In this document: piece by piece, positions 1-20,453 of the stretch | Layout: each line of letters begins with the position of its first letter | How positions within the stretch are numbered: the first letter of the stretch is position 1 | Source of the DNA: Gonapodya sp. JEL0774 | Taxonomy: Eukaryota | Length of the DNA: 64,000 bases | NCBI GenBank assembly: GCA_027604505.1 | Contig: JADIIX010000021.1 | Location: 1 to 64,000, forward strand | Direction of reading: 5' to 3' | Notes under the pieces: generated by a model | Database searches by the model: none | Told to the model about the DNA's origin: nothing | The model's input: the letters and a program-made list of their open reading frames with translations, nothing else | Made by a program: the position numbers and the translations under genes

Positions 1-365
1 GCACAATTTTCGGACAAAGTGGCGAGAGGATATGTATGTATTCCTTAGAACTGTCTATCCCCAATGTGTTGAACGTGACTCATGGGGAAACCCTAGGCTA
101 GATTTGCTAACATTCTGAATACACATTTCTCCCAATTATTCAAGAGATTATGGTTATCTTACATCATTTCACAGGTTCATCTTGCATCGATTTTATGGGT
201 GGGTGAAGTAAATTACAGGGTGGGGGGTGTAAAAAATGCGACAGCTGACATCTTTTTGGTTTGCACTGTGGATGATCCCTCGGCAGGTTTGGGTGAGGTG
301 ACAGTCGGTTGATCATCCACCATAACTGCATCAACGTTGATGGTGTTCTGGGGGATTGAATTGTG

Positions 366-1141
366 TTAGCAAGAAGGTTGATTCCGCAGAAATGGAAAAT
401 TCACCTGGAGTTGCTCCCCCCTCTCCACTGCCTTGCCACGCTCGAGGGTGCAAACTACATCATTGACGGCTCCAAGAGTGAGTCCGGTGGCGGTGTTCAA
501 ATTCAGCCCCTCGTTGATGGCGGTGGCTGCATGCTCCGTCTTGGTCTGGAAATCCTTGACGGACGGCAAGTTCTCAAGTGCAGACTGGATGCAATTTATT
601 ACGCCCTTGTTCATCGCAGAGACATTGATGGTCCCGATGTCAACTCTGGTGTCGTCTCTGGCGACCATTCTGAGATGCTGCTTTGCGGAGCTTGCGGAGC
701 TTGCGGAGCTGCACTGCTGAAAGTTGATGTTCTTAATGGCCGTCACCACGTCCCTGGAGACTTGGGTTGTGTTCACCGAGACACTTGCTCCAATGTTCAA
801 GCCATCGAGCTTTGACTGGGCGGCCTGCTTAATAGTGGCCTCGAGCTTGTCCATCTGCTGAGAATTTCTGGTGATCTCCTGGGCACAGTGTGTCGTGAGG
901 TTCGACTGCGCGGACATGTTCAGAGTTCCGATTTTGGTTTTGGAGTTCCCTCCAAACACCAAGTCGGTGTCTTGATCGATGCTGGACGACGAGGTGCATG
1001 TTTGGCTTGGTTCCGAGAAGAGGTCTGTGGAGATTTTTGTCATGTCGCTCACGTTGTTGACGACCACACGCATATTCCAAAGAAATGCCATTTCTCAATG
1101 TGGCTCAATGGAAGCTGAGTGCCAGAGAAAAAAAGACCCAA
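366..1141 (-). pseudogene. Remnant of an NCLDV L1R/F9-like myristoylated membrane protein (poxvirus L1, iridovirus/marseillevirus lipid-membrane protein family)
   Basis: Intronless ORF 366-1091 has the family's repeated S/T/Q/N-rich helical pattern: QTCTSSSSIDQ, IKQAAQSKLDGLNIG, QQCSSASS, NCIQSALEN, QTKTEHAATAINEGLNL. There is no C-terminal TM helix and no in-frame MG start, but an out-of-frame (T)TG-G-L-F-F-S at 1141 fits MGxxxS. Recognised from memory of the family, not by search. Confidence 0.65.
683..710. repeat. 9-bp tandem repeat (TTGCGGAGC) x3, coding SSA-SSA-SSA inside the L1R-like ORF
   Basis: Directly visible: ttgcggagc ttgcggagc ttgcggagc. Confidence 0.9.
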
Positions 1142-2222
1142 CCTAAGTTTTTTGGTAGCACACTGGCCCCTGGTTGGTTTTCCACGCCAGGTTGTAGCAC
1201 CCCTGCTGCGTCTTTTGGCAGTCTGCTTGCATTGCTATTGCGTTCTCCTGCTCGGTTTTGGCGTTGTCGCAAGGGAGCCTTGGAAGATATAGGTCCCTCA
1301 TCGCTTCCACTGTCGTTGGAAACTTGCACTTTGGTTTGAAGCCTGAATAGAGAGGTAAATGTCCATGGCATAAGTGGTAATCATCATCGCGATCAGTACC
1401 AAGCAGAGCATCCTTACGGGGGTTGGAACAATCATCGCGCGCTGTTCAAAGGTGGCTCTATGAAAGAAAAAGATTCAGAATGCCAGATGATGAGCCGGAT
1501 CCTTCACAATTTTCTCTGAGTAAGGGGGTACGCCGTTCCGTTGAAACTATTGCACCGCAAATGCCATCACTCCTTATACTCAGAAGGCCCAAACCATCGC
1601 CCCCCTTAGTGAGACATTTAGATTGTGATTGTCGTGAGTTCGAGTTTTGTTACGCCGTCCTTATTCAGGTGGGTTCTCATGTGAAATTGTCCACTCAATT
1701 GCGAAGGTCCATTCAGTGACTGGACTTGTCCAGCGAATCTTCATCTTTATTGTGAACTTGGTGTGGCGTTACAATATATTCTGCATATATAACCCTGGTG
1801 TCGGCCACAGCACACAGAACTGGAGAATCACCGATTCTCATTTCCGTCTTTCCAATCCCAACACACATTGATTCGAAGTGGCTTTTTGCCAGGGACAGGT
1901 TTCTAGTGCGCGAAATCATCGTGAAGCGTAACGACCTGCCCTCTTTCCACCTTACAGAAAGAATCTCGGGACGACTGTCTGAAGGCGAGAGAAGGTCTGT
2001 AGTTACAAACACGGAAGAGCTACATCAAGTCCAAGGCTGTCAATGGCACTGGAGTACCAGATACTCGACAGCAGTGGAACGTGGAAGGAATTGGAAGAGT
2101 ACGATAATAAATTTCATAAATGGTGAACGACTTTGAGGATCGCAAGTCCAGCAGGTGTTTCAAAGAGTTTTCGAGATGAATGTGTGTTTTTGTACAGCTA
2201 TTCCAAGCGGAACGCTAACTAC

Positions 2223-2285
2223 TCTAGAACTAATCTAGAACTATCTCTAGAAGTATCTCTAGAACTGTCTGTAGAACTATCTCTA
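2223..2285. repeat. Degenerate 12-bp minisatellite (TCTAGAACTATC), about 5 copies
   Basis: tctagaactaa tctagaactatc tctagaagtatc tctagaactgtc tgtagaactatc tcta, immediately after the F-box ORF stop. Confidence 0.85.
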
Positions 2286-3200
2286 CGATCCAACGTAAAA
2301 GTCGGCCACCACCTTCTGAATCTTCCCACTTTTCCTTGTACGTCGCCCGTTGAGCTTGGCACGTCGAGGGTGCGCCGGCCTACTTTTCATTGATGGCTGC
2401 CTCACCAAAGCCAAAGACATGATTCCGATGTTGCCCTCTCCACGGGGGCAAAGAGCTGCTTTTCTTTTCGATTTATCCCTAGGGTCCTTTCGCCAACCTC
2501 GCCCCCCGCCTTCGTCTCTCCACATTGTCTTACTTGGAGTGTCCTCTATCGGAAGACAATAATAGTCATCGATCTCCCCGGCTTCGCAAGCATACACAAA
2601 TATCCGTAGCCACCGCTTTTCCTCGTGGAGCCAACTTTGGTGCGTCTTGACAACCACGTTAAGAGCATTTTGGAATATCGAGTTTTCATTTGGCCAATTC
2701 GGTTTTGTGTGCTCAAAGTCAAAATATTGGTGGCACGTCACGACAGAAACAAACACATCGAATTGAACAGGCTGCCAAAACTGATTCATGTGGTACGGCT
2801 CATATGGTGGCAGATAAAGTGACGGCGGTGGCAAGTTATGATGCTTTCTCTTTCTCCAGACTCGGCTGTCGAGGTCTCCTTCCCAATTGAGTGACTGTAA
2901 GATGGCTTTCTCATCGTGCCACCCACTGGCCAGGGTGGCGACATGGCGTATGACTGCAGCACGCCAGGTGGAGCACACGCGTGGGATGGCAGTCAACATA
3001 TCGATTGCCGGAAGCAGTGTGAAGATTGAGAGCCATATTTCGATTGGGAGCGCAACATTTCTGCGTCGTCGGCGGCAATGACTGACGGTAGTCCAAGTCA
3101 TAGGGGTGGAGTATGTGAGGTCGGGTCGGCGTCCAGCAAAGAAGAGGCTACCGAGCCGGGGCAAGTGAACATTTGCCCGCACCAGGGTCGATCTGTCCAT
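2283..3200 (-). CDS. F-box domain protein (apparently intronless)
   Basis: F-box motif LPIEIWLSIFTLLPAIDMLTAIPRVCSTWRAAV. The start may be the ATG at 3101. The C-terminal part is not recognised. Confidence 0.7.
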   Translation of the reverse strand: MDRSTLVRANVHLPRLGSLFFAGRRPDLTYSTPMTWTTVSHCRRRRRNVALPIEIWLSIFTLLPAIDMLTAIPRVCSTWRAAVIRHVATLASGWHDEKAILQSLNWEGDLDSRVWRKRKHHNLPPPSLYLPPYEPYHMNQFWQPVQFDVFVSVVTCHQYFDFEHTKPNWPNENSIFQNALNVVVKTHQSWLHEEKRWLRIFVYACEAGEIDDYYCLPIEDTPSKTMWRDEGGGRGWRKDPRDKSKRKAALCPRGEGNIGIMSLALVRQPSMKSRPAHPRRAKLNGRRTRKSGKIQKVVADFYVGS

Positions 3201-4555
3201 AAGGGTTCCCCTGGTCTGCAGCCTTGCGATACCAATTTACGGCCTCCACCTCGTCCTTGACCACGCATCTTCCAATAGTGTACATCACAGCAAGGTAAAT
3301 GTGTCCATAATCGTAACCCTGGTCCGCGACCATGCTATAGAAGCGAGCCGCCTCCACCTTGTCCTTCTGCACGTCTTCTCCCTTAGCGTAGCACACCCGG
3401 AATCTAAACTGAGATTGTACGAGCCCCTTGTTTGCTGCTTTCAGGTGCCATATCAGAGCCTGCGCCTTGTCTTTTTCTTGTCCTGTCACAAAGTAGAAGC
3501 AACTTTCCATGCCCCTGAACGTCTTGATGACCCACACGTTGACACCATTGGAACGCGGTTTTAAGGTCCTTTGGAAGTATCCCAAGTCCATTCTTGTAGC
3601 AGAAGCAGAGTTGATGCTGCGACCCTGCATGACCAAATTCCGCTGCGCGTAAATAGACTTGTGATGCCTTGTGTAAATCTTGATTGAGTTCATCACGACC
3701 ATGAAGAAATGACTCCGCCAATGAAAACAAACCGTTCGCGTCACTGGTATGTTTTGCTTCTTCAGCCGATTCAATGGCTTTTGATTCTCGTTGAGAACTA
3801 GAATGACATGTGATGAGAAGGCAGGCACACAGCAAATGAATATATTGGCTCTCGTGATTTGAGAAAGCGTGTCTGTGATTAAAGTAAAGGGTGGACGATT
3901 GTTTGGCAGTGGATCCCAGCACTGTCTCAAAAGCGATTCAAGTTCAGTAGGCATTTCAGCATCCAAAGGAACATCTGGTCGATGATGGGGTGATTATATA
4001 TCGAACGCAAAATGGCATAAAATTTGATCGTTGGGAGGTGACCAGAAGGTTCCTCCTTCCTCCAAAGCTGAATCACACGTATGGAGAGGTTTGACATCGA
4101 GCAGTCGAACGTGGCAACCTACTGAAGCTACTGAAGATACTCACAGAATATATGACCGTGGCAAAAGCATATATGTCGTCTTTCTTCGTCGTCCCTTCCC
4201 CGCGTAATCATTCAGGTGACATGTACCGCACTTTCCTCACGGGGTTCCCGGTTCCGTGAAATGCCGGTGCATTCAAGTGTTTGGAGTTTCCAAAATCTGT
4301 CAGAACTGTATGTTTCACTTTGTCTACGAGGGCGTTGTTAGGAGATAGATCAGCGTGGACGATCCCTAAGCTGTGAAGTACTCCATTCACCGGGACATGT
4401 CGAAAAGCTGGCAGAGATACCAGATAGTCTCGGAGATGATGCTTAAACCGATATTGACTCACCAGTAGGAGGATTTCACGTCGCCATGGTGCTTCATCTG
4501 ACTCATATCTTGCAAGATATTTCGCTACACTCCCGTACTCGGGAAACAAAAGCAA
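3148..4555 (-). pseudogene. Tyrosine-kinase-like (TKL) kinase fused to Sel1-like repeats, disrupted
   Basis: Kinase motifs LHSLGIVHADLSPNN, DFG, RYMSPE, DIYAF and CWDPLPNNRPPF. An in-frame TGA at 4208-4210 follows SPE. Sel1 repeats (AAEFGHAGSQHQL, WYRKAADQGNPYGQ) are split by a frameshift near 3520-3540. Confidence 0.85.
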
Positions 4556-4869
4556 AGAATTTTCCTCGATTCACAATTCCATACAAGCGTAACACTCATT
4601 TCATATTTTTCTCTTATACTACAGATATAGAACTTCCAGAAAATGTAAGCTTTATCTTGCTACCTGATTTATTTACACCAATTAATAGTGTGTGGGAGGA
4701 CAACCCACCACCCCAACAACACATCAACCTTCAGTCAGAATTGTTAGTGGGGGCCAACGAAATAGGCTAGTGCTGGAAATTTAAATTTTCATAGTGAGTC
4801 AAAATTATGATTTACAAAAGATTGATGCCTCATAAAAGTGAAACTTGAAAGGGATGGAGTCAAAGAATG

Positions 4870-6583
4870 CTAATCAAGTCTGATTCCAACAATCCCACCC
4901 GAGCGAATCAATTCCATAGCCCATTTCCTTGCATTTGCATACGATGTCACAATCTCCCCAGGGTCGTCCCTAAAATAACCAATATCCGAATCGGAAGGCC
5001 ATTGGCCGTCGTCTCCTGTGCTACCTGAACGCCCCAAAAAGTGGCTGGATACCCGCTCTTGGAAACTCTCCTTCCCTGAGATTTTAGTAGGTCCACTATC
5101 GTCATCTGGCTTGCGAAGCCCTCCGCTGCCGCCACCTGCACTGTCCGAAAATTGCGTCCGCTTCGTTCCTCGGCCGTCCGGAGGCTTAATATACTTCACC
5201 AACTCCTCCCGTAGCACAGTGATGGCAGAGCCACGGTCCATCTTCTGAGATGCGATGAGAGGACTCTCATCTCGTTCTCCGGTTCTCGGGTTGTTAAGAG
5301 TCAGCCAAAAAAGCATCCACCAGTCATTCAGGTCCGTGAGGACAATAAACGGCTTAGATTTAAACTTTTCTTGAAGTCGAGCCAGCGTCATAAGCTCACC
5401 ACACGCTTGGCTAATGTTGGCTGCTGCCTGTCCGACTCTTTTGACCTCTATTCCGCACATTGCGGCAATAGCCATTCCTAGTGCTGTGGCCGTCCTCCAG
5501 GTTACCAGTAGGTCGATCGTGCCCTTCACTGAAACATCCCCAATTTCACCATTAAGTAAATTGCCGTGCTGGCTTGAGTCGAATATGTCGAGCAACGGGT
5601 AACGCGATAGCTGGAGAACATCTTCTAGGTATTTCTTGTACTTTGCTCGCTGGGTTCGGTGACTCTCAGCAACATCCGCAATCCACTGATAGGCAGGAAA
5701 TCTACTGCTGAGCTGTCCATCCAGATCGGGGAACTCGTAGTAGTAATAGGGGCTCTTGCTCAAATCGAATTTAGATAAGCTAACAGTTTGCTCTCCTTGT
5801 ACTATATAAAAGCGTATTGGAAGAAAACAAGGCGATTAGAAAGAAGTAAAATGTCGGAGGAACTTAGATTCTCACTCTGCTCCTTTAATTTCTCTGGTAG
5901 TTTCCGTACTTCATCGCGAACTGTTGATATTCGTGAATTAGCATGTAGATGGTGTCAAAACGAGAGCGCGATTAATCTTACGTAGTTCAATCTCAGATGA
6001 AAACGACGGGTTGGCAGATGCTAGATGTGGAACCGAGAATGAAGTAAGCAAACTGTGCTCCCTCAGGCACATCTCCACGCAAACCGAACAAACCTGCAGG
6101 CCGGCGGACAACAACGTGTATGTATTCTTCCTCAGGAGGCCTTGGGAAGTAGAATGCGACCCTTTTCAAAGGATCCATCACATCTTCATCCTTGAACGCT
6201 TCCTCTCTCAAAGTGGTAATTTCCGAAGAAGGTACGTTGACTTTCCAGAGGTCGAGATCTGCAGCGTCAACATCTGAAAGCGCTCGAGGTCGCACTTCCT
6301 TGATGGCGGTCTGGAGGGAGTTGATTGACGCCGAAGGAGTTACGGAGACCTCAAAAATGGGTTTCTTCTCGCCAAACAGAAAACAGGCGAGAGTAAAAGT
6401 TGTGGTGGCGATCTTGGATGCTTTGAAAGGGCGCTGAGACGTGGACGGTGTTGGTTGAGTGTCGCGTGCGGGTATGGGGGTGGAGTCAGCGGAAAGGTGG
6501 CGCTTGCGGGAGGAGGAGCCCCGGCGAAGCGACTCGGGAAGGTCGTCGACGTCAATATCGGTGTCTGCGGCGGAGTCTGACAT
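4870..6583 (-). CDS. Crinkler (CRN) family effector with C-terminal PD-(D/E)xK restriction-endonuclease-like domain
   Basis: CRN N-terminal domain (LACFLFGE...LDLWKV...IHVVVRRP) in 5993-6658. The last exon has VKGTIDLL...IEVK...QACGEL...VLTDL. ATG at 6583; introns lie between ~6093 and ~5770. Confidence 0.85.
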
Positions 6584-7431
6584 GCAAATCGTTCTCTTGC
6601 TACAATAGCATAACTGAGTGACCAAAGTATCGGCTTGTGTTTGTGCTCTTCCCCGCAACGCACGGGGCAGCCGACCAAGACTCTTAGTTTAGAACGCAAA
6701 TGTAATAGAGAGCTTAGTTTTAATACAATGATAACGCTACTTATAAAGTCCAAGTCCTGGCCTCTTTGCGGCCTGCCCACATATGGTTGCCGCGGGCCTA
6801 GGCTATGAGATGTGATAAGTGCACATTCCCCCGGCAGCGAAGAACCAACTCTACATTTCGACTAAGCTAATTGCTGCTCTATACTTACCTAACAATTTAT
6901 AGCTTAATGGTTTTGTAAATATGTCCGCCTTTTGGAGTTGAAGGATTGTTTACAGACCTTTTCGACAATACCGCAAAAACGATCTCAAAGGCACTCTCTG
7001 CTGCAGGTGGAGGGATCAGTGTGGCACATGGGGCTTGTGGGTTCTGAGTTTGGCAGCGCGGTGACTCTAAAAACGATGTAACAGCGCCAACTGTGAAGTT
7101 TAAGCAGAGTGAGCGAAATGGCAGTCGTAATATGATCTTTGTTTGTCCATGGCGCCATTCATTCTCTCCACACACGTGACCACAGAATGTGAAAAGTAAT
7201 GAACGACCTCACTACATCAGTGGACTCTGTGCTATTTTGTAGAATAAGCGTTGCCAAGGTGGATTCCACGCGAGATGGGCATCAGAAGACCGTCTGATTT
7301 GATGTTGAACCTCTGGCAACGCGAAAACCACAAACTGCCCCACTCACAATCCACCACCTATCACTGCGTTGCCCTTTTCCAATCATATCCACTCCACTCC
7401 AGCCGTAAGACAACACTGACTTCTTTCTTTG

Positions 7432-9076
7432 CTAGCTCCCTAACTCATTCGCTCGGGCTGCGCAAGCGTGGAGAGAGCATCCAGCTCGTCTCTTCGTCAT
7501 TCTGGCGAGGTGGAGCTTCATTGCGCGAACAAAATTGGCAGGTCGAGCCATTGGACCGTTGCCGCGATAAATCACATTCATTCCGATTGAGTGCAGGTAC
7601 ATTTGAATTTCCGAGGGGCTTGCATGGCGATTAAACTGCTCGGGAACCATGATGTTGAAGATTTCAGCTTCTCTTAATTGCTGCTGTTCTCGCTCGTCCC
7701 GGTTTTGTCGGATTTCCCGCCTTCCCCACAACCCGAGATCGGATGTCGCTCGCGGATTAGCTACGATATGTTGTTCTTGTCTGATTCACAGCATTCCAAA
7801 TTCCTCCATACGGCGCAATCTACCCTGAGCACCGTCCGGCAAGTCCAAGATGAGAGTGACTGTCCTTGGCTCTTTTTCCGAATACTCACTTTCTCCATTT
7901 CTGCCTGAAGTGCAGTGAAGAAGAAGTGCAGCGTATTCTCGTAGCCATGTTGACAAAAAGGACCGAAGGAGCTTATCTGGCTGAGTCACGGCGATGAAAG
8001 TCTTGTCCGCGAACCGAAGACGATCTCCAATCCACCACCAGTTCCATCACGAGCGAGACGCTCCAATCTGTAAGATGCGATCCCAGCCACGTATCCCGCG
8101 TTTCCATCCTCGTCTAGAGTAGCGATAGCTCCCATCTTGTCCGTTTTCATTGCCGGTGATGCGTCTTGGTCGCCACGCACGAGGGACAGAGCTTGTTGTA
8201 ATCCATCGCGGTCCTTCTTGCCGAGACCAGGTGGGCGTGCCCCGCTCTTCATATCGTGAAAGAACGTTTGGTGCAAACCAGAGCCACGCTGTTTCAGGTC
8301 GCGACGAATGATCTCGAGCGGAGCAGGCGCCAGTATGCCGATAATGAAACGAGGTTGGTAGAATCAGTAGCGGTACCAGAGCAACCCAGAAACGTGTATG
8401 AATGCCCACCTGCGCGTCAATTGAGATCCTCTGACCCTTTGACTCATCCTTGGACTTCCGGAGGTCGGCAAAGTTGCCGATCCTTGGCGATGAGATACTC
8501 ACAATGTAACATTGTTCCTCACCCAACCACTCACCAATCATTGACCACATTAAAAGCATAACTGGTCCCATTAAAAGGTTGTTGTTTGGCGCCAACGGAC
8601 CAAAAAAGATGTCCGGTTGCACCACACACGCAAAACTCTTCTGCGCTGCGTCTGTCAAGTCCGAGATAAACTTCAAACTGATTTGCACCTCGCGAGACAG
8701 ACAATCCAGTGCATACACAATAATCCCGACAACAAATGGGCTCGCGAGACATATCTGTTGCGCCGCCCAAAGTCCTGCACACGCAACATCAAATGTTATC
8801 AAGTACAAACATGACGCTCCATGAACTCATAACGTTAAAGAGCTTACCATAACGTTGATTTGCAGAAGATCCATATTCCGCCGCACCGGATCTAACAACC
8901 TGAAACACAAACGAAGATACTCTAAAGCTCCGCTCCAATGCCCATTGGTGAGCCATTACAGCCTGATCAGCGAATAAGACGTTATCACGACGGTCATCGA
9001 CTGATTTACGGGCATAGATGAGCCAGAATGATGGCCGCTGACCAATGTTCAGTGCGGGGTTGACTTCGGAGTCCAT
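7432..9076 (-). pseudogene. Spliced serine recombinase gene with two tandem resolvase domains and a recombinase-like C-terminal domain; disrupted
   Basis: Domain 1: IYARKS (Ser codon 9002-9004)...DQ...RSG...RYG|LWAA (GT-AG intron 8775-8847 restores the frame)...IIVYALDCLSRE. Domain 2: DLRKS (Ser codon 8452-8454) KDESKGQRISIDAQ| (intron from 8409 to ~8313)...FFHDMKSGARP..DRDGLQQAL...YRLERLARD...FFTALQAEMEKVSIRKK. C-terminal: FGML...EAEIFNIM...SPSEIQMYLHSIG. Frameshifts or stops near 8040, 7986 and 7786. Confidence 0.8.
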
Positions 9077-9300
9077 TGAAGTTTGAGCTTGAAGCCGGCA
9101 CTGAACAGCTTGTTGAGAGATAGACGATTGCAGAGAGAGAGAGAGATCGGATCCCTTGATGATGTAGGTGAACGGGTAGCGCCGAAGGGTCTGCAAAATG
9201 GGTCAAAGGACACTTGGGCGTCAACCCATGGATTGAGGATTGAGGGATTTGTTATTGTACGCCGAGCGCCTTAATTTCTATGCTTTTTTATGCGTTCGCC

Positions 9301-9365
9301 GCTATCCCCCCCGTTCCCCCCGTGGGGTCTCCCGCTGCGCGGGGGCCCGTGCGTTCCCACCCCGT
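9301..9365. other. GC-rich hairpin and C-tract element between divergent genes
   Basis: GGGTC(T)CCCGC-tgc-GCGGGGGCCC stem at 9325-9348, with outer GTGGG/CCCAC arms, preceded by C7-GTT-C6. Confidence 0.55.
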
Positions 9366-9538
9366 ACCCTTTACAGGCCGATTACAGTGCTGAGGCCGAG
9401 GTTTCCGAACTGAGGTTGCCCAAGCAAACGAGTTAACGTCCATTCAAGGAATGTGGGTTAAAAACGAAGGTGCGATGTGCCCTTCTCGGACATAATCTCC
9501 CCGTCCACATCCCAGATTCATCTGAGTGCTCCCAGGCA

Positions 9539-11098
9539 ATGGCTGTCCCAGCTCTCCTGGTCAAGCTGCCAACCAAACCTGGCCCTTACTCTCTCGAATC
9601 AAAAATTCTGAATCAGTTTCCGGAACTTCCGGACCCGGACTTTCTATCTTTCACGCGACGTCCGGACTTTTCTGGGCTGTTGAAAATAGCGTTTGTCAGT
9701 ACACGTTCAACACGAGGACAAATGTACAATATTGGAGACGCCGTGGGATCGCCCTTTCCAATCAACTCCCCTATCCCTCCAGGCACACTATTCGCCGTAT
9801 TTGAGTGGCTATGCGAGCAACGATACACCCATGTCCTCCTGAAGCCGGTTCTAGAGAGCTCATTCCCTTGGTCGAACCCCGGCTTTTACAGGACTGCAAT
9901 TCGATCACTCCTGGAGCACGTCCACACGCTCTTTGTACTGGTGCCGGACGAAGGAGGGAACTATTTTGTGAAAAGAATTTTACATGCCGTGATTGGGGAT
10001 CATGAATGCAAGAGGTCTAACTGCAAGATTGCTATGGAGAGCTGGTTTGACCCAACCAACATGATAGAATCAATGCTGGTGAAACGGAAAAAAGTCCTCA
10101 TTCACGACGGCAGTACTACCGTGAGCAATGGCTCTCGGTCTATAACAATTATGGAATCGTGGAATGCCTACTGCAAAGCTTTGATAGAGACGAGTGCGTT
10201 CGTTGTCTCTGCCATGGAGTTAAATGAGGTGAATAGGAAGATTGAACTCCTCGATGAAAGCAGGCAGCATGGATTTGGAAGGGCATTCCAGATCGCCCTA
10301 CATGCACACAGCGATGCAAATGGTGGTATCGTAGACGCTCTGAAGAGCGTCTGGATAATGCTAAGCAACCCCTTGGAGTGGCCACAGGACGGAGATTCTA
10401 GCGTCGTTCTGATGACAAAATTCTTGCGCAACCTGACGGAAGAGGAATGCGCCGCCATTGCCGTGATTGATTGCAGTCCCGCAACTGCTCTCCAACCAAG
10501 CTGGATGCCAAACTTTAAACGCTATTATGCTGGGGCAAAAGACTTGATCCTGGGTGGTGCTGAAACGCTGGACAAAACGCTCTCACCCAGAGTGCGAACA
10601 ATCACGCCAATTGCGCTTCGGCTACACATAAATGATGAGAACAGAGTTGTTTCCGTACATCCAATTCCCAATAATTTCGAGCTATCAGCATCTCATTCCC
10701 GAGACTTGAATAAGATCTGCGAGAACAAAGGACTTTTTGCTTTGAGCGGAACTAACCCGCTAACATGGCTGGCGCTGTTCAACCTATCAGAGTACAAGGC
10801 CGTCAGTCGGCGTTTAAATGAAAGCTTACGGACCTGTAAGGTAGTACTGGCCTCCAACCAGACAGTGTCACTAAGCGGATCACCTGATGTCACAATTCAA
10901 CCCGGGCACATCCTTGTGTACATGGGCCGGGAAAGCGGTTCGTGGCCATTTGATCTTGGCCATGCTGTAATGGCCGTGCGCCTCGAGGATAATTTCGGCC
11001 GAGTTACCAAGGTTGGCGCCTTCTCAGCAGACGCGCCACTTACCAATGTGCCGAGGAATCGCGTCTTAAGCGAGCGTGGCAGCTGGACAGTTGAGTAG
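9539..11098 (+). CDS. Hypothetical protein, ~520 aa, intronless, unknown function
   Basis: Uninterrupted ORF of complex, globular-looking composition (ORF track 9470-11098; first ATG at 9539). No motif recognised. Confidence 0.7.
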   Translation: MAVPALLVKLPTKPGPYSLESKILNQFPELPDPDFLSFTRRPDFSGLLKIAFVSTRSTRGQMYNIGDAVGSPFPINSPIPPGTLFAVFEWLCEQRYTHVLLKPVLESSFPWSNPGFYRTAIRSLLEHVHTLFVLVPDEGGNYFVKRILHAVIGDHECKRSNCKIAMESWFDPTNMIESMLVKRKKVLIHDGSTTVSNGSRSITIMESWNAYCKALIETSAFVVSAMELNEVNRKIELLDESRQHGFGRAFQIALHAHSDANGGIVDALKSVWIMLSNPLEWPQDGDSSVVLMTKFLRNLTEEECAAIAVIDCSPATALQPSWMPNFKRYYAGAKDLILGGAETLDKTLSPRVRTITPIALRLHINDENRVVSVHPIPNNFELSASHSRDLNKICENKGLFALSGTNPLTWLALFNLSEYKAVSRRLNESLRTCKVVLASNQTVSLSGSPDVTIQPGHILVYMGRESGSWPFDLGHAVMAVRLEDNFGRVTKVGAFSADAPLTNVPRNRVLSERGSWTVE

Positions 11099-11104
11099 AG
11101 GAAA

Positions 11105-11200
11105 TTCCTCTGCAGGCAAGAATGAGTACCACAGTGCGTGTGTGCGCGTGCGCTTCCTTCCTCTGCAGGCAAGAATGAGTACCACAGTGCGTGTGTGCGC
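11105..11200. repeat. Perfect 43-bp direct duplication (11105-11147 and 11158-11200)
   Basis: ttcctctgcaggcaagaatgagtaccacagtgcgtgtgtgcgc occurs twice, separated by 10 bp. Confidence 0.95.
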
Positions 11201-12253
11201 CTGTTGCGGATGGAACAGCACACCAGATTGTTGCTATTTGTATTTTGAAAAGGAACGTGACATTCACAATCATGAAGCTATATCTGGACGCGTTTCATTA
11301 ATCTTTAAGCTCCTGAAAAGGACAAAGGTGAGCTGGGACAACTACAATTTGAAATCTGCTCTCAAGCACCGGGTAGGGCACCAGGACGAGTCCCCTGAGA
11401 GTTACTGTCAACTATGATAGTTTCCGTTTTTGAGCACGGAACGTACGGAGCTGATGGTTTATAAAACGTCTCGTTGATCTCCATTCGCGTCCAACCAGTT
11501 AAAAGATTAACAGGTGGTCACGACATTTGGGAGTTTCTAAATTGGCGTTCAAGAATCGTAACATTGTATCAATGCTATGCCACGGCCGTTCGCGGTGGAG
11601 TTCCGCATCTGAGACACTCAGAGTATTCGCTTTAGGATTTGAAAGGATTCTGCATCAAACAGTAGTGCTTCTAGAGTCTAGAGCAAAGGCCGGGTTCAGT
11701 CCCGACGAAAATGGAAGCCAGGATGCCAATCGCTATCATCATGTGAGCAAGGTTCAAACTGCAACACCGTGGAAGAGAGAAAATTCCACAATTAACGTGA
11801 AGTTCTCTGCGGAGGATTGACTGAGGACTTGCATTGTGATTCTTCGAGCCTCGTGATGAGGTTCAACCTGATGGGAATGCGCTCTTTGAGTAATTGAGTT
11901 GGATGAAGAGGTTTTTGAAATTAACTGGCACAAGAGCGGACGGTTGGCGAACATTTGATTGTACTTGAGAATAATTCAGATCGCGTCATTTGCCAAGCAA
12001 CCTGAAATTGTACAACGATGGGATCAGCGATCGCCTTTCCCTTGCCGGATTCCCGGTGAATCCATCTCCACAGTCTAATTTAACTGCACCGCTGCTGAAC
12101 CGAATCCGATCCCAAATTCATTCAAATAGATTGACGTCGAGTTAATCGATTCATCGCCGAATCGATCCGTTGTGGCTCTTTTGCGCGATTCTGAATTCGC
12201 GTCATTCCCTGGACTGTTGTGCTCGGAATCCACGCCGATCAAACCCACTCGCC

Positions 12254-15200
12254 ATGCGCGCTTCAGGTGTGTTCATCACCGTTGCTGATGCGGCATATGC
12301 GCACTCCCGTTCACGGCCGCGGTGGCGATCGACGTGCCTTCAACCTCCAGCGTCCCATCACCCCTTTCTTCTGCCCCTCCTCCTCCTCTTCGCGGCTCTG
12401 TCTCCCGCCGTAACCGCCCAGAGAGCAGGCAGAAGTCTCCTGCAGTCGATCGTCCAGGGTCCCTCCCCTGCGTCCTATCCCGTTCCCCAAGGAGTCCAAA
12501 TCCTCAACCTCGTTCCATCCTCGCAGTCCACTCCTCTGGCAAATACGTCATTCGGACAGTCGGTTACGTACATTGATATAGATGGCACTGGTACGCCAGA
12601 GATGGTTGTAGGTGCTCCAAGTGGGTAGCAGAGCCGCGAAGGAGGAACGAGCCCCACCGGGGCGCAACAAGTGTGAGAGGAGACAGTTAGCGACCAGGGA
12701 ACTTCACCACAAATGGCTGGTATTGTGAGCGTAGCGGGATGGTCCTGACGAGATGGTGCGACCAGAGTGTAAAGTCCAGACTGAACGCCGAATCCGTGAT
12801 TTCATTGTCGGAAACCCTTGTGTTTAAACGGCCAGACCGTGTGTGTCCCAAAGGAGTATCGTATTTTACACATCCATTCGTGTGTGGGAGCGCTCATTTC
12901 ATTCGGCTTTTATGCTCACCGCCCTTTCACTCTCCCCCCGAATCCCCACCTTCCACCTCCCTCACTTTCTTCCACACTACGCGCTCACCCAGGCTGGAAC
13001 GGAACTGGAGCCGTCCTCATCTTTACACTAGACTCGTTCGGAGTTCCCGTGGGTCTCCTCGCTTCTTTTCGTTCCTCGGCGTCTCCTAAGCTCATCTCAT
13101 AACCCATCAAATCATAGAACGTCACCAACTACACTGTCATCACCCACGGAATGACCAACATAAGTATCTCCTCTGCGACTCAGTTCGGCTGGTCTGTCTT
13201 CCCCATGGGGGATCTCGACGGGGACGGCAACGTGGACTTGCTCGTGCGGGCGGGAGCCTCAGGTATGTTGTGTGTTTGAGGGGGCTTGGTTGGCAGGGTC
13301 GCGGGAGTGGAGGGATGGGGGAGCGTGGTACTCCGTGATAGAGGCTGCGAAGGGATAACCACACTTCCACAGCGTGCAAGAGCGCTCAATAACGCCCATC
13401 GTTTTCCCACTCTTCCGTAACCCGCCCTCCAGCCCCCTTCGTCTACACCTCCACAGGCGCCAACACAGCCTCGTACCCCACCTCGGCTAACAAAACCTGG
13501 GGCGCTTCGTTCCAGTCCGTGGTTGTCATGATGGGAAAGAGCAACGGAGCGTATTTCGCGCGGAGAGCTTGTGTGCTCAGCGGAGTGGTGGTGAGTCGAG
13601 CTTTTGGTCTCCTCCTTGGGGTTCGTCGTTGGGTGTGGTACGGCAGATTGGAAATTGGGTGGGCAAGGCGAGGAGGGTTGGCGATATGGTTTGGTAGGGC
13701 ACCGAAGGCAACCCGACCGCGACTCCATTTCACCCGATCCGTCATGCTTGAGTGAACTCACTGACACACTCTCGTCCATTCCACCCATCCATCCTACCCC
13801 ATCCAATCCCTTTCTCATAGGGAAACTCTATCCCAATCGGAGACATTGACGGGAACGGGGTGAGCTAGTGGATCCAGACCGGACCGCACTCCATATGCAA
13901 TGTACCAACCGTTTCACGCCTTGACACAAACCCCCACGCTCACCGATTGTCACCGGCGCGCAACCCCGCAACCCCGCACACTGTGCTGTCTCAGGTCACC
14001 GACCTCCTCAGCACCTTCTACAACGCTACATCGGGGAAGGTCGTTCACCATTTCAACCGGATGGCGTACAACGTCACATCGGGGTGCCCGTACATGGTGG
14101 GGAGGTACTCGGCCGTGTCTGACGATTGGTAAGTGTGAGAGCTGTAAACTAAGTCTTCCGTCGCATTCGCGCGATGCTCACACTCCCCGTCGCCCGCCCT
14201 CCCTCCCCACCCCCCCACCCCCCCGGCCTCTCACCCCACTCGTCCCTCCAGGGCCACCAAGAACTACAACGGCACCATCCCCTACGCTAACCTCTCGTTC
14301 GGTCTCGGCGCAGGAACGTCAGAGTACCACCTGGTGAACACCATGTTCCCTGCCGGGAGGACAGACGCTGTGGGATCTGCGAATTGCTCGGATGTGGGGT
14401 TCTATCAGCCGGTCGTGAGGAATGGTGGGTTGTGGCGGAGGACTGAGGGTAGTGGGGGAAGGGGGGGGAGGGCTTGGCTGTTGTGGTATCACGTGGTCAT
14501 ATCCTTGGTTTTGGCTCGAGTGGCTCCGCCCGCGCCGCGATGTTTTGTGCTTTGGAGATGTCGTTGTGTCCTACCCCTATATCGCCAGTGTTCTTATGTC
14601 GTGCTCCTTCTCCTTCGCTGTCGGCTTCTCTAGGAACCTTCAACAACTTCACCGGAGGCATCATAGGCATCATTCAGCTCAACTGCGACAGGACCAACAA
14701 CAACTTGTCCCTGCCAGGAAGCTTGTTCAGGGGATGGAAGATTTTTGGTAAGTTCGGCCGAGGGGACGTGGTCCATGGAGGGTTGGTTAGTTCGATTAGT
14801 ATGAGTATGCTTCATTGATTTGGCTCCGTTTACTCCCCCAGGCTCAACGGGAAACTTTGGATCGGCTTCAGGTGAGGCTAAGTGCCAGATTAGTATACCG
14901 CTGGAGATAATGTGGTTCATCAACTCTTTCCTCTCCTACAGGAGTCTCTTGGTCTCGGGGTGTCCCGAATTCGTTTGGCAATTTCACCAACGGCGGTGAG
15001 ACTATTCTTTTTGTGTGGTGTTGTAACCTACTCTCAAGCCTCAGCGCCCCTCCGCCCTCCTTCTACAGGTGCGGTCTCCGCCAACGTTGCCCCTGTCTTG
15101 GTGCCTCCCACCTCCAGCGCCGTCCGAGCCAACTACAATTTCTCCACCTGGAATCAGTATCTCGTCCTTCAGTCCAGCTTCCCCGACGTGACCGTCGCAT

Positions 15201-18107
15201 CCCAGCAGCTTGGCGTCAAGTTGGTGTCTCTTAGCAAGAGCTCCAACGCCCTGGGCGACGTGGCTGATGTGTGGAACTCAACCGTCGACCAGCCTCTCGT
15301 GAATTCGTCGTTCCCGCAAGCGGACTTGATCACGTCAAGTTATGGAAACGTGAGGGCGTTGTGGACATGTCAAGGCGCGATATTAGGCTGGGTGGTCGTT
15401 CTGATGCTCTAAATGACATTCCTCGCAGTCGTACGGTGTCGGGATCGCCAATCTGGCTTCCAAAGAGAGTTATTTTCTGTACACTATCGTGAGTCGTATC
15501 TGCGGCGAGCTTCCGATTTCACCAGCTCAATGTTACTCGTGTTTTTCTTTGAAGGGAAAAGGCAATGCGGTTCCGGGACAGAACGGCCTACTGATGACGT
15601 TTAAACGTAGGTCCAGTGCATCTTTCAGTGAAAAGTACTTGAGTGTCAAAGTCATACTCTCTTTGAACATTTTTGTATCTTCTTTTGGCAGAATGTAAGC
15701 TTCTTAAATGTTTGCTCAATTTTCTTCTTGCTCATATTTACTTTTAACTTTCCACGTCCTCAGATCTCTGGTCGTGTCCGGCAAGTTGCGATGATTGCTC
15801 CAACAGTGCGAATTGTACTTCATGTCTTGCAGGTAAGCAAACCGCAGTTATGCAGATACAGCCTGTTCAGTGACCTTCGGCCGACGCGGCGTGTCTTTCG
15901 CAGGAAACTATCTTCAGGTTAATGGCACAAACATGACCTGCGCGGCGAGCTGCCCCCAAGCATTCTACGCAAACACGACGACCCAAAGCTGTGTCACCTG
16001 CTCAACGAATTGCACCAACTGCACGTCTGGAACAAACTGCACAACGTGCGCCACCGGTAAAGATTTAACTTCATCTAGCTTGTTTTGTTACCATTCTCTT
16101 CATCATTCGAGTTTCAGGTACTTTCCTCAATGCCACGACCGGCATGTGCTCCGGATGCTCTGCCAACTGTATATCTTGTACTTCAAGCGGCTGTTCCAAT
16201 TGCACCACAGGTGTGCGACGGATGTTTCAGTGGACAGAATTCTTTCAGTAGTCGCTCAATAATTTGTTTGAATCCTTGCCCAGGAACATACCTAAATGCG
16301 ACCAGTAAAACGTGCACTGCTTGTTCCGCGAATTGTACGGCTTGTAATTCGAACCAACAATGCACCAAATGCGCCTCTTGTAGGTTCTGCTCTGGTGTTC
16401 TGGTTGCGGTGTAATCATTCGGTTCACTAAAATTCGCATACTCGCTCGGGACAGCGTTTGTACTCAACCTTAATGGCACTTCTTGCACCAGCAACTGCTC
16501 TGTGGGAAGCTATCTTCCTCCAAACTCTACCACGTGCGCCGCGTGTACTGGAAACTGTTCAATGTGCTCAAGTAACAGCACCTGCAGCCAATGCTACCCT
16601 CGTAAGGATCAAACCTTGGAGCGGCTGTGATATCTCCCCCTTAACTCGTTCCCCGTCGACTCTATTCAGCTTATATATTTTGGAGAGGTGCTTGCATTAT
16701 GTCTTGCCCGAGTGGATATTACCAGTGGAACGCGTCGTCGACAAATATGACGTGTGCAAGTAAGTTCTCGAAGCAAATGCTCTTACCGCGCTATACTAGA
16801 GCAGAAGTTTTGTTTACTTTCGTTTAGGCTGCTCAGCGAACTGCACCACCTGTGACAGTTCGAACACGTGCTCTGCTTGCACAACGGACACCTTCCTCTG
16901 GAGCGATGGCACTTGCCAGACAACTGCTCAGCAGTCTCAATCAATTTTCTCAAACTACTATGTTGTAGGCGGGATTGCAGGTGGAGGTGCGCTGCTCCTT
17001 GGGCTCGGTGCAGTTGGCACTGTTCTCCTCGTCAAGAAGAGTAAGGCAAATCGCCTTTCAAAACAAAAGAAAGAAAAGGAAGACAAAGAGAAAGAAGAGC
17101 AATCCAAGAGGCTCAAAGATTTAGCGACAAGAGCGAATGCAGCTCCTGCGCCGACTGCTCAGACGACCCCGCGCTCACCGGGACCATCTGGACCACCCGG
17201 AGGAATGGCTAGCAGGAGTCCAATGAATGCAGGCCCTGAGTCTCGGGGCCCGATCCCCATGAATCAACAACAAGGTGGTGCGAGCGCTAACTTTACCGTA
17301 AGCTCTTTGTGTATATCCTTCATTCTTCTGCAAGATTTGACAAAATATCTCCGAAAAAACATACTGTAGGCCGACCAAGTTGCTGCTATCATGCAAATGA
17401 CAATGAATGCTTCATATGCAACCACGTCCCCACTTGTAGCAAGTGCAGGAAGCAATTTCCGAGGTCCACAGATGATTCCTCAGGATCAGGCACCCATGTC
17501 GCCAATGATGATGACCTCGGGACCAGCAATGAACGTATTTGCGTCGCGAGGCCCCACCAACGTTTTCGCTTCTCGTGGCAATGCCATGCAAACCCAGCCT
17601 CAAATGGCGAATCTCATGCAAACGCAGTTCTCAACCGTCGGCCAGACTGACTATGGTCCGGGACCGGCCGAGTACACCTCAGTTACACCTGCGTTCCAAC
17701 CCTCTGTAGCAATGCAGGCAATGGCGACCGGTAACTACAACATGCAACCCCAGCAGGCGAGGTCCATGGCGGCACCGGTCATGATGCAACGGTCAATGGG
17801 GCCCACAATGATGATGAACCCGAATCAAGGAATGATGTCGATGCAGCCCATGGGACAGGGCTATGGGATGCAGCAGATGGGCCAGCAACTGGGACAAGGT
17901 GGTTACGGAATGGCTTCTATGCCCATGATGCACGGAGGTGGTGGAATGCAAATGCAAGTGGCCGGTATGCCAATGCAGAATGGTGTCATGCCGATGCAAG
18001 GCGGAGGCATGCAGATGGGAATGGGAGCTCAACAGCAACAGCAACCGCAAAATGTGGGAGAAGAGTTTGATGACATGCTGAACCAATTGAACAACCTGCA
18101 GTCGTGA
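12254..18107 (+). CDS. Type I membrane protein: FG-GAP (integrin-alpha-like) repeats, furin-like Cys-rich repeats, TM helix, Met/Gln/Pro-rich tail; multi-exon
   Basis: Hydrophobic leader FLLPLLLLFAALSPAVTA. FG-GAP segments FGQSVTYIDIDGTGTPEMVVGAP, FGWSVFPMGDLDGDGNVDLLV and IGDIDGNG. CxxC repeats at 15770-16920. TM YYVVGGIAGGGALLLGLGAVGTVLLV-KK at ~16955-17040. Stop at 18107. Confidence 0.8.
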
Positions 18108-18292
18108 AGTACCGGTGCACGGGATGCTAACATAGGCCGTTCGAGAGAAACTAGCACCTTATGAGATGGAACAAGCAATGAACCCATCGATGTCTATTAA
18201 AATCAGTCAAACTTTTGTATGATAAAACGTATGATTGTTTCTGTGCGGCAATCGATCGGTTTTTCCTCTTGCCGCAGTCTCGCCCATTCTAT

Positions 18293-19835
18293 TCACATTT
18301 GATATGCCGAAAATGCGGCGCCCGCCAAACTCGCCACGCTAAGTTTTCCGACGTAAGCCAGCGGCGCAATCGTTGCCACGAGGGCGGGAATCATGATATC
18401 GTAAGTGTTGGTAGAGGGAGGGAAGATTTCACCGAGGATGAAAGTAAGTAGCATTCTACGAAGAAAGAGAAAAAGCGGTATCGGATATCCTGCTTTGGGG
18501 CAGCGAGAGAAATTGGGAAACACGAAAGCCACTCACCGGTTGATCAACCTCACTCGGAAGTCCCTCTCGAATACAATGGGTGTCGCACCGGCAACTGATA
18601 ACAGATAGTATGCTAGCCTGTGTTTGTACAGAGGCTCCCCAGTGGTGCGAAGCAGGTAGCATTGTCCCAATCGATGAAGGAACATGTTGGTGGACAGGAA
18701 CAGTGTTGACCTGAACCATCCTTCGATGAAGTCCTTGATATCTCTCAAGATTACTCGAATGACAAAAACGTAGAGCGGATCCTTGTGTTTCGACTTCCCA
18801 CCGCTCTGCTGACCGTTCTCAACCGCACCGTTGCTCGTGGGAGGTGACGTTGGGCCACCACCTAACGAGTTCCTGCGAACCTTTTCAATTACCGCGGGGA
18901 GTTGCTTTGGTAGGTTTGGCAGTTTCGACATGCCGCCAAAATAAGTCGACATTTCCACGGCAGAGTCGATCCGCTTGGGTTTTTCGTTTGCCTGCTGCTC
19001 CTTTTCACGCTCCAACCGCTCCTGTTCCGCTTTCCGCTCTCTTCGACGATGAAGGTAAGCCGAAAGCTGGCCGTAGAGGAAGCTCACTATTCGGACAACC
19101 ATGGTGTACACGTACTGAACCATGTAGAATCGGATGTCTTTGTGTGTTCAAAGGGTGAGAATAGCCCTCGGCGACGAACTGGTCCCATTGCGCACAATGG
19201 GAGGTGAACTCGTGACAACTCACAAATGTTGGAAACTTTTTGAACGGTGACGGGCCATTCGGAGAATGCGGCTGACGTGCAGTTTGGGTTGCCAGGGTGC
19301 AGTTGCGAGCATGAGTCCACAGTGACATATCGTCTTCCAATAGTGGGGTACATACTGATACGAAGTACAAAGTCAGTCGATCAAGTCCCGCGCGCTCGGA
19401 TGCTGCTCAACTTTACAACACCCACTTTCTGTCCAGCATTGCTCGGTACTTTTCAGTTAACGTCCGCCGTGAGCCGACAGTGTGACTGCAAGCGTACAAA
19501 ACAAAGACAAGGCCACGTTTAGCTGTGTAAGTTAGGTGGAAACTTCCGAGACAAAAGGCTTACAGGAGGATGAACATCGTGGGTTCCAAAAATCCAAAGT
19601 AAAACATGTGTTCGGTCCTCATCGAAATTTTGGAGTTGGGCAAAAACGACGATTGCAAGTATCGAAGAAGGACGAGGATGATGAAGTACTTGAGGGATCG
19701 TGCGGGAAAGGTTGCTGATACGTATTTTATCACGGGCGAGAGCCTGGTTGAAAGCTGTTGTAGGAGTGGTGCTGGTAAAGTGGAGAGGAGCGAGGAGGAC
19801 AAAGAAGACAACAGAGTCGACTGAGACGGCGCCAT
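18293..19835 (-). CDS. TMEM135/PMP52-like membrane protein; multi-exon
   Basis: CSQLHPGNPNC motif followed by several hydrophobic segments (RSTLFLS, YYLLSVAG, FERDFR). Splice signals are visible. Confidence 0.5.
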
Positions 19836-20453
19836 CGTCGATGGTTTTGAAGAGAATGGGAGCGTTTATATGGTCTGATGGGTTAACAGCGGCCTTGATG
19901 TTCCGATTCGATGCGAATATCTCCAGAGTATCTTTTACTCGTCAACTGGCGAACAAAGCGGCGCGAATGGCAGATTCCTTCCAGAATTCGAGTTGTGAAA
20001 GAAGACGGCGTTTCCAAACCGCGTCAAAACGTCGGTTTTCAATGAGACGTGAAAGTTGGATCAGCAGATGCGGAGGCAAAATGCACCGCTTACTCGGAAC
20101 CAGTGTTGCCTGCGAGGCGCACCTCATTCCCCCAAAACATCCTGTTTGCCAATTTATTTCTATTGTAAATGGCACCGAAGCTTTCATTATTCAGCCAACT
20201 CTCGTTATTTCTGTCTTTGTTTTGGTGCTCAGAAATGGATCATCTTTTCGCGGTTTGAAACAGACTCTGGATCCTCGACGCACGATCACGGTCTTTTGGA
20301 ATCACGGGAATCGTTTTCATTCAACATAACTCTGCACAGTATGCTGTACATTCACGCACTTTCTCTCGATTTCTCACTTATTTAAGATAGCACTCAAACA
20401 TAACTTAACTCCCTGCTTGCATGCTCCCAGACTGACGAGTGTCATAATAGTTA

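Follow-up and report, generated by a model that had tools for sequence, protein, structure and literature searches.

Probable decayed junction of two serine recombinase genes, likely from an undescribed mobile element, in Gonapodya sp. JEL0774

A minus-strand locus of the early-branching fungus Gonapodya sp. JEL0774 contains the 5′ half of one serine recombinase sequence followed by a frameshifted, near-whole second one. It is quite probable that these are two genes joined by a deletion or rearrangement, and that the family to which they belong supplies the enzyme, a transposase or an integrase, that moves an undescribed element. The window analyzed here is a 64,000 nt stretch of contig JADIIX010000021.1 that contains no Ns. 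A first-pass annotation, made from the letters alone, had joined four ORFs and the frames between them into one gene, read as a single-chain pseudo-dimer recombinase that later decayed. The decay is confirmed, as unit 1 is cut off and unit 2 carries nine lesions, and the host is indeed eukaryotic. The single gene does not hold, unit 2 having seven frameshifts and two stops, and the pseudo-dimer is best abandoned, since both units have intact relatives that are separate single-domain proteins, an outcome that the annotation itself had named as refuting it.

The resolvase-type motifs all lie on the minus strand, in window frames and at the positions first proposed. The span given for them, 7432..9076, does enclose the motifs, but gene B extends to ~7364 and gene A probably starts at ~9121. 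Serine recombinase homology of both units was verified with a catalytic-domain profile of the family built without Gonapodya rows: unit 1 scores 115 bits (profile positions 2-139 of 157), unit 2 scores 43 + 23 bits, and reversed controls give nothing. Compared with each other as proteins, in hand-picked frames, the two units reach a local score of 63 (no shuffle out of 2000 exceeds 48), whereas as DNA they show no likeness (28 vs 23.5 ± 2.8, maximum 36 of 200), and their split must therefore be an old one. The two Pfam Resolvase (PF00239) matches and one PF07508 match that had been predicted did not appear, with Resolvase found in none of six raw window pieces and PF07508 in no window piece and in none of 13 relatives. 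The raw pieces also gave no match to PDB sequences, NCBIfam, or PHROGs, and none to each other by BLASTP.

NCBI's automatic annotation holds a hypothetical protein from Gonapodya sp. JEL0774, here P0001, whose exons equal the window letter for letter and which uses the same first intron; it is therefore a model of this locus. P0001 falls just below the Pfam Resolvase cut-off (E = 2.6e-4; 21.6 bits against 23.3), and all 30 of its 30 Atlas neighbors are Resolvase clusters; the C-terminal ORF has no usable Atlas match. P0001 has no phage match and five plasmid matches, the only recombinase among them at E = 7, and its single-sequence fold has a pLDDT of 34. It joins both units, but its predicted introns after the first excise conserved motifs, so we regard it as unreliable beyond intron 1.

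Exon 1 of gene A (8848..9121, minus strand) encodes an N-terminal extension, the nucleophile motif Y-A-R-K-S, the Q and S-G motifs, and the sequence up to the R of R-x-G-L. NCBI places the start at 9076; a probable older start lies at ~9121, where the Met of the paralog P0004, 82% identical to this exon over 87 aa, aligns with an Ile codon. The spliceosomal intron 1 (8775..8847, minus strand; 73 nt, GTAAGC...TGCAG, phase 1) had been correctly recognized as a GT-AG intron, and P0001 uses it too. Its removal restores the R-x-G-L motif common to the family alignment, and P0004 ends exactly at its position. Exon 2 (8530..8774, minus strand) supplies the remaining catalytic domain, in which D-R-x-x-R reads D-C-L-S-R, with Cys for the first Arg, and no C-terminal domain comes after it. 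Homology of unit 1 to P0006, P0014, and P0016 stops at 8530, in the first turn of helix E. Judged by these sequence comparisons, unit 1 is the 5′ half of a single-domain recombinase gene. When its second half was used as query against proteins of 215 to 2000 aa, P0001 alone was retrieved (one of 82 candidates). A displaced 3′ half of gene A was not found in any of the six frames of the window, nor was a displaced N-terminus of gene B; this is a low-power test and the blank is weak, since the same profile missed unit 2's own broken C-terminus.

Gene B begins with a coding piece at 8410..8469 (minus strand) that carries the nucleophile motif as D-L-R-K-S, with Asp at the first position, which is Tyr or His in the paralogs. 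The match of unit 2 to P0002 and P0003, which are ~73% to 76% identical to it, begins at 8469. Just before the equivalent point, each of these proteins carries a Met followed by a hydrophobic first strand, neither of which is present in the window; P0007 likewise carries the first strand after its own Met. The following 91 nt (8319..8409, minus strand) are likely a second intron: the stretch starts with GT and has no counterpart in the intact P0007, but no AG is present at the expected 3′ end. The remainder of gene B (7364..8318, minus strand) encodes the catalytic domain with its B-type insertion, helix E, an I-A-P-Y-G motif, and a C-terminal domain. From 8469 to 7364, unit 2 is collinear with residues 18 to 344 of the intact, stand-alone P0007. 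An extra intron at V-S-I (GTGAGT) in unit 2 was considered and rejected, the sequence being collinear with P0007 there; the V-S-I site that unit 1 also has could mark one.

Frameshift-aware alignment places frameshifts on the minus strand near 8023, 7971, 7874, 7714, 7491, 7456, and 7436 (four relative to P0007, plus three relative to P0003 at the 3′ end), and minus-strand stops lie at 7822 and 7759. These nine lesions fall in 1015 nt of unit 2, whereas the 474 nt of unit 1 are free of both frameshifts and stops (binomial p = 0.03 at the rate of unit 2); unit 1 could have been under selection for longer or have arrived later. With most of helix E absent from unit 1 and Asp replacing the Tyr of Y-x-R-x-S in unit 2, the window copy is a pseudogene that would be unable to recombine.

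Relatives were collected by a phmmer search of P0001 against 1.84 billion protein representatives (E ≤ 0.001). The library is clustered at 50%, at which level a representative could conceal a fused protein, and many of the relatives are fragments or automatic models. Each of the 15 proteins retrieved has one matched catalytic region. Among them, five come from Gonapodya sp. JEL0774, two from Hyaloraphidium curvatum, and one each from Amoeboaphelidium occidentale, Chytridium lagenaria, and Quaeritorhiza haematococci. Two Hyaloraphidium members already bear the label "Resolvase" at NCBI. A single catalytic domain is likewise seen in all 19 stored relatives (P0002-P0020), many of them fragments and ten of them (non-Gonapodya) used to build the profile; the two matching stretches of P0002 are halves of one domain. 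The Pfam Resolvase (PF00239) cut-off is exceeded by 11 of the 13 relatives scanned, and P0002 and P0003, which are decayed models, have no Pfam match. None of the 13 matches PF07508 or PF13408, and none gives a helix-turn-helix (HTH) Pfam match at E ≤ 1.

An alignment of 11 members shows Y-x-R-x-S, Q, S-G, R-x-x-L, and R-x-x-R to be invariant, with Y14, R16, S18, R112, and R115 kept in all 11. Near-complete members of 294 to 375 aa form five clusters (P0006, P0007, P0008/17, P0013, and P0016/19/20). A C-terminal profile built from A-type proteins finds the B-type P0007 (E = 1.4e-7), which indicates that each gene has its own C-terminal domain; together with the sizes of the near-complete members, this common domain makes one catalytic plus one C-terminal domain the normal unit. 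The protein search found no A-type model of at least 158 aa besides P0001, which argues weakly against an obligate A-B pair. In a tree of 29 catalytic domains, which includes no giant-virus rows, the 14 family rows separate from 15 prokaryotic rows with a support of 100/100, and the family thus forms a distinct clade. Unit 2 groups with P0002 and P0007 (100/100), and unit 1 forms a long branch within the family. The metagenomic proteins P0011 and P0012 break off at V-S, which could reflect read-through of further introns. A word-based profile search, too insensitive to exclude fusions, recovered two family proteins and one bacterial large serine recombinase (LSR) among 7996 candidates. Scans of metagenome contigs, prokaryotic genomes, and viral contigs, which need near-exact peptide words, returned no family member; one ordinary phage recombinase (L008) came from the viral contigs.

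A link to an undescribed mobile element, first raised as a possibility, is probable, and the near-identical copies and many pseudogenes agree with it. In Hyaloraphidium, P0008 and P0017 are identical at 330 of 332 residues, in four accessions, with P0017 on three contigs. These copies point to recent mobility, and Gonapodya has at least six family loci, mostly broken models, on contigs that differ in length. Taken together, near-identical copies and many dead ones suggest the pattern of a transposon family, and we think it fairly likely that the family members are mobile-element enzymes; segmental duplication, or redundancy in the assembly, could also have produced the identical copies. The four accessions (KAI9026947.1, KAI9000166.1, KAI9007001.1, and KAI9031229.1), 99% to 100% identical, encode an apparently intact 332-aa recombinase, and P0015, 93 accession numbers from P0008 and listed on a contig of equal length, is a divergent second Hyaloraphidium member. 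No convincing terminal repeats were seen around the Gonapodya locus (6600-12200), as expected of a serine recombinase element or of a decayed one; IS607 elements have neither terminal inverted repeats nor target site duplications according to the excerpted text of PMC13565253.

The neighborhood of the locus is host-like and repeat-prone, with Crinkler, kinase/Sel1, F-box, and P450 genes. Right after the 3′ end of gene B comes a Crinkler N-terminal domain (5996-6688, minus strand; E = 2e-19), followed by a 321-aa ORF (4873-5835, minus strand) that has no Pfam match and looks by eye to be of restriction endonuclease type, and by kinase, Sel1-repeat, and F-box fragments in several frames (2286-4570, minus strand) that are apparently decayed. 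On the other side, divergent from the recombinase locus, an orphan intron-free ORF of 553 aa from stop to stop (9437-11098, plus strand) has no Pfam, NCBIfam, PHROG, PDB, or viral-contig match and could be a cargo or partner gene of the element. Right behind its stop lies a tandem duplication (11105-11203; 53-nt spacing, 46 nt 98% identical), a possible element edge. Farther away, blocks at 36800-39550 and 43200-46000, 72% to 88% identical at ~6.4-kb spacing, form a tandem gene duplication with a weak amino acid permease match, and an ORF at 55649-56581 (minus strand) belongs to the Beta-lactamase family of serine hydrolases (E = 2e-17). Rfam gave no match in positions 1 to 20000.

How the two units came to stand side by side can be weighed at their junction (8470..8529, minus strand), 60 nt that are in frame and stop-free and that resemble neither the part of helix E with which A-type relatives continue nor the N-termini of B-type ones. 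A genuine single-chain fusion with two catalytic domains, since decayed, would account for a reading frame that stays open from 8774 through 8410, for a unit 1 free of frameshifts, and for the NCBI model P0001 also joining the units. A stretch of 60 random nt would keep the frame and contain no stop with a probability of ~0.12 (~1 in 8), a point against the two-gene reading. P0001, however, is unreliable beyond intron 1. Two domains occur in none of the 19 relatives, and the proteins P0002 and P0003, ~73% to 76% identical to unit 2, have their own Met and first strand where the fusion would run on. With helix E of unit 1 breaking off after one turn and strand 1 missing from unit 2, the units could presumably not pack as a normal dimer. 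We therefore hold a fusion to be very unlikely. An assembly chimera of two repeat copies is more improbable still: the repeats are multi-copy and the assembly fragmented, with paralog contigs of 1.7 to 40 kb, but this locus is inside a 206-kb contig, the window has no Ns, and there is no DNA similarity between A and B through which they could be mis-joined. The most likely explanation of the locus is thus that two genes meet at a decayed junction. Whether they met within a tandem two-gene element that lost its middle is about an even bet, a route slightly favored by two deeply diverged paralogs lying 60 nt apart on one strand; insertion or recombination of an A element with a B element is a reasonable if somewhat less probable route.

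The nature of the family itself could be explained in another way, as a relic of endogenized giant-virus DNA or as a domesticated gene whose copies spread passively. Among viral folds, the serine recombinases of giant viruses match the family best (E = 7e-9 for Bodo saltans virus), and giant-virus DNA has been reported in Gonapodya prolifera, in the excerpted text of PMC5294986, and in zoosporic fungi, in the main text of PMC13533422. The latter main text, as available, names no serine recombinase, and identity to the viral folds is only 13% to 17%, no better than to phage integrases. None of the 43 window ORFs or pieces scanned with Pfam is a viral marker, the neighbors are Crinkler, kinase/Sel1, F-box, and P450 genes, and the viral-contig scans returned no family member. 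Domestication, for its part, fits near-identical copies and many pseudogenes less well than transposition does. Either origin is therefore unlikely, and mobile-element enzymes remain our preferred reading of the family.

Serine recombinases bind each site as a dimer, assemble into a tetramer, make serine-linked double-strand cuts, rotate their subunits, and religate the ends, with helix E as the dimer and synapse interface. Intact family members would accordingly sit as a dimer on each end of the element, using helix E together with the C-terminal domain, the latter likely reading the site. Two such dimers would join as a tetramer at synapsis and cut four strands through the serine of Y-x-R-x-S; the subunits would then swap by rotation and religate, which would excise or insert the element without inverted repeats or target duplication. 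At the Gonapodya locus, a single deletion or rearrangement has most likely removed the 3′ half of gene A together with the start of gene B.

A eukaryotic, intron-bearing, non-IS607 family of serine recombinases is apparently undescribed, and it is probably mobile. No description of it was found in the main texts of the full-text literature searched, including the excerpted texts of PMC6431247 and PMC5871332; no paper in that literature combines "serine recombinase" with "chytrid", and the main text of bioRxiv 10.1101/2021.12.02.471044, in its accessible portion, contains neither "resolvase" nor "recombinase". The serine recombinases of eukaryotic mobile DNA in the excerpted texts of PMC3627910, PMC2715888, and PMC10711439 are of IS607 type only: the family gained by the yeast Lachancea/Saccharomyces kluyveri (PMC2715888), and IS607 TnpA in association with Fanzor2 elements (PMC3627910, PMC10711439). 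If correct, our reading would mean a separate lineage that has acquired spliceosomal introns and is retained by zoosporic fungi and aphelids, in five genera altogether, and hence a new eukaryotic route of transposition. It would also provide compact (~335 aa) recombinases already adapted to chromatin and of possible use in DNA insertion. With four near-identical copies available in Hyaloraphidium, the ends and the target of the element can be tested directly.

A structural model of P0007 was built with AlphaFold2 on an 11-row alignment (pLDDT = 77, pTM = 0.54). Its best PDB match by Foldseek is Bxb1 integrase (E = 3.5e-8), VIA-align superposes 128 residues on TP901-1 integrase (3bvp) with Z = 14.9 and an rmsd of 3.8, and the top 13 rows of a wide structure search are serine recombinases. 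Family members are thus predicted to have the Resolvase catalytic fold. Giant-virus serine recombinases of 230 to 337 aa (Bodo saltans virus, Edafosvirus, Pithovirus LCPAC104) are the top viral fold matches, with ~300 aligned columns at rmsd 11 to 18 and 13% to 17% identity to the family model, and could possibly be the source or sister group of the family. Among giant viruses more broadly, including Gaeavirus and Yasminevirus, serine recombinases of 230 to 557 aa align over ~300 columns.

The family resembles IS607-like elements in being a serine recombinase present in multiple copies in a eukaryotic genome, and at E ≤ 0.01 the NCBIfam IS607 model recognizes the catalytic domain in 9 of 11 members. 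IS607 TnpA, however, has an N-terminal DNA-binding domain and ~190 to 250 aa in the excerpted text of PMC2715888. The family has instead a C-terminal domain of 150 to 190 aa and no HTH Pfam match in 13 relatives, and strand 1 of P0007, a protein whose record is labeled partial, is preceded by eight residues. Of the 43 ORFs and pieces of the window that were scanned with Pfam, none is a TnpB or Fanzor. In build, as far as sequence can tell, the family is not IS607-like.

CcrA and CcrB of SCCmec are encoded by two tandem, divergent serine recombinase genes. Anciently diverged paralogs head to tail on one strand are also what we see here, in one broken locus only, but the family proteins are shorter, lack a zinc ribbon, and come from a fungal host. 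The CcrB model matches 8 of 11 members and the CcrA model 3 of 11, a generic likeness of catalytic domains. A more far-reaching reading, tentative and as a whole rather doubtful, would see an undescribed class of eukaryotic DNA transposons whose intron-bearing, non-IS607 recombinases descend from the large serine integrases. Such transposons would occur in chytrids, monoblephs, and aphelids and would have moved recently in Hyaloraphidium, with the Gonapodya tandem of A and B as a CcrA/CcrB-like heteromer and the present locus internally deleted.

Large serine integrases (Bxb1, TP901-1, phiC31, CisA-like) are the known system towards which the family leans. All 11 members match a PHROG integrase family, and the P0007 model aligns to residues 1 to 285 of Bxb1 (242 residues, rmsd 12.3), reaching its second domain. 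The nearest sequences of P0016 comprise 94 phage and 210 plasmid records, the plasmid matches being recombinase-family proteins; its best phage tblastn matches are serine integrases of ~30% identity that extend past helix E through P-Y-G. The recombinase DNA-binding domain annotated after unit 2 is weakly supported: a C-terminal domain is there, but its likeness to the LSR recombinase domain is weak (HHalign E = 0.0055 with a probability of 6.6%, against 0.09 for the reversed control). With a local recombinase-domain profile, the ORF at 7785-7435 ranks first of 2306 window segments at E = 0.7, with collinear motifs. Unlike LSRs of 460 to 650 aa (outgroup rows 460-685 aa), the family proteins have 332 to 375 aa, without a zinc ribbon, a coiled coil, or a PF07508/PF13408 match (P0008, P0013, and P0016 end at 332-372 aa), and they differ further in having a spliceosomal intron and eukaryotic hosts.
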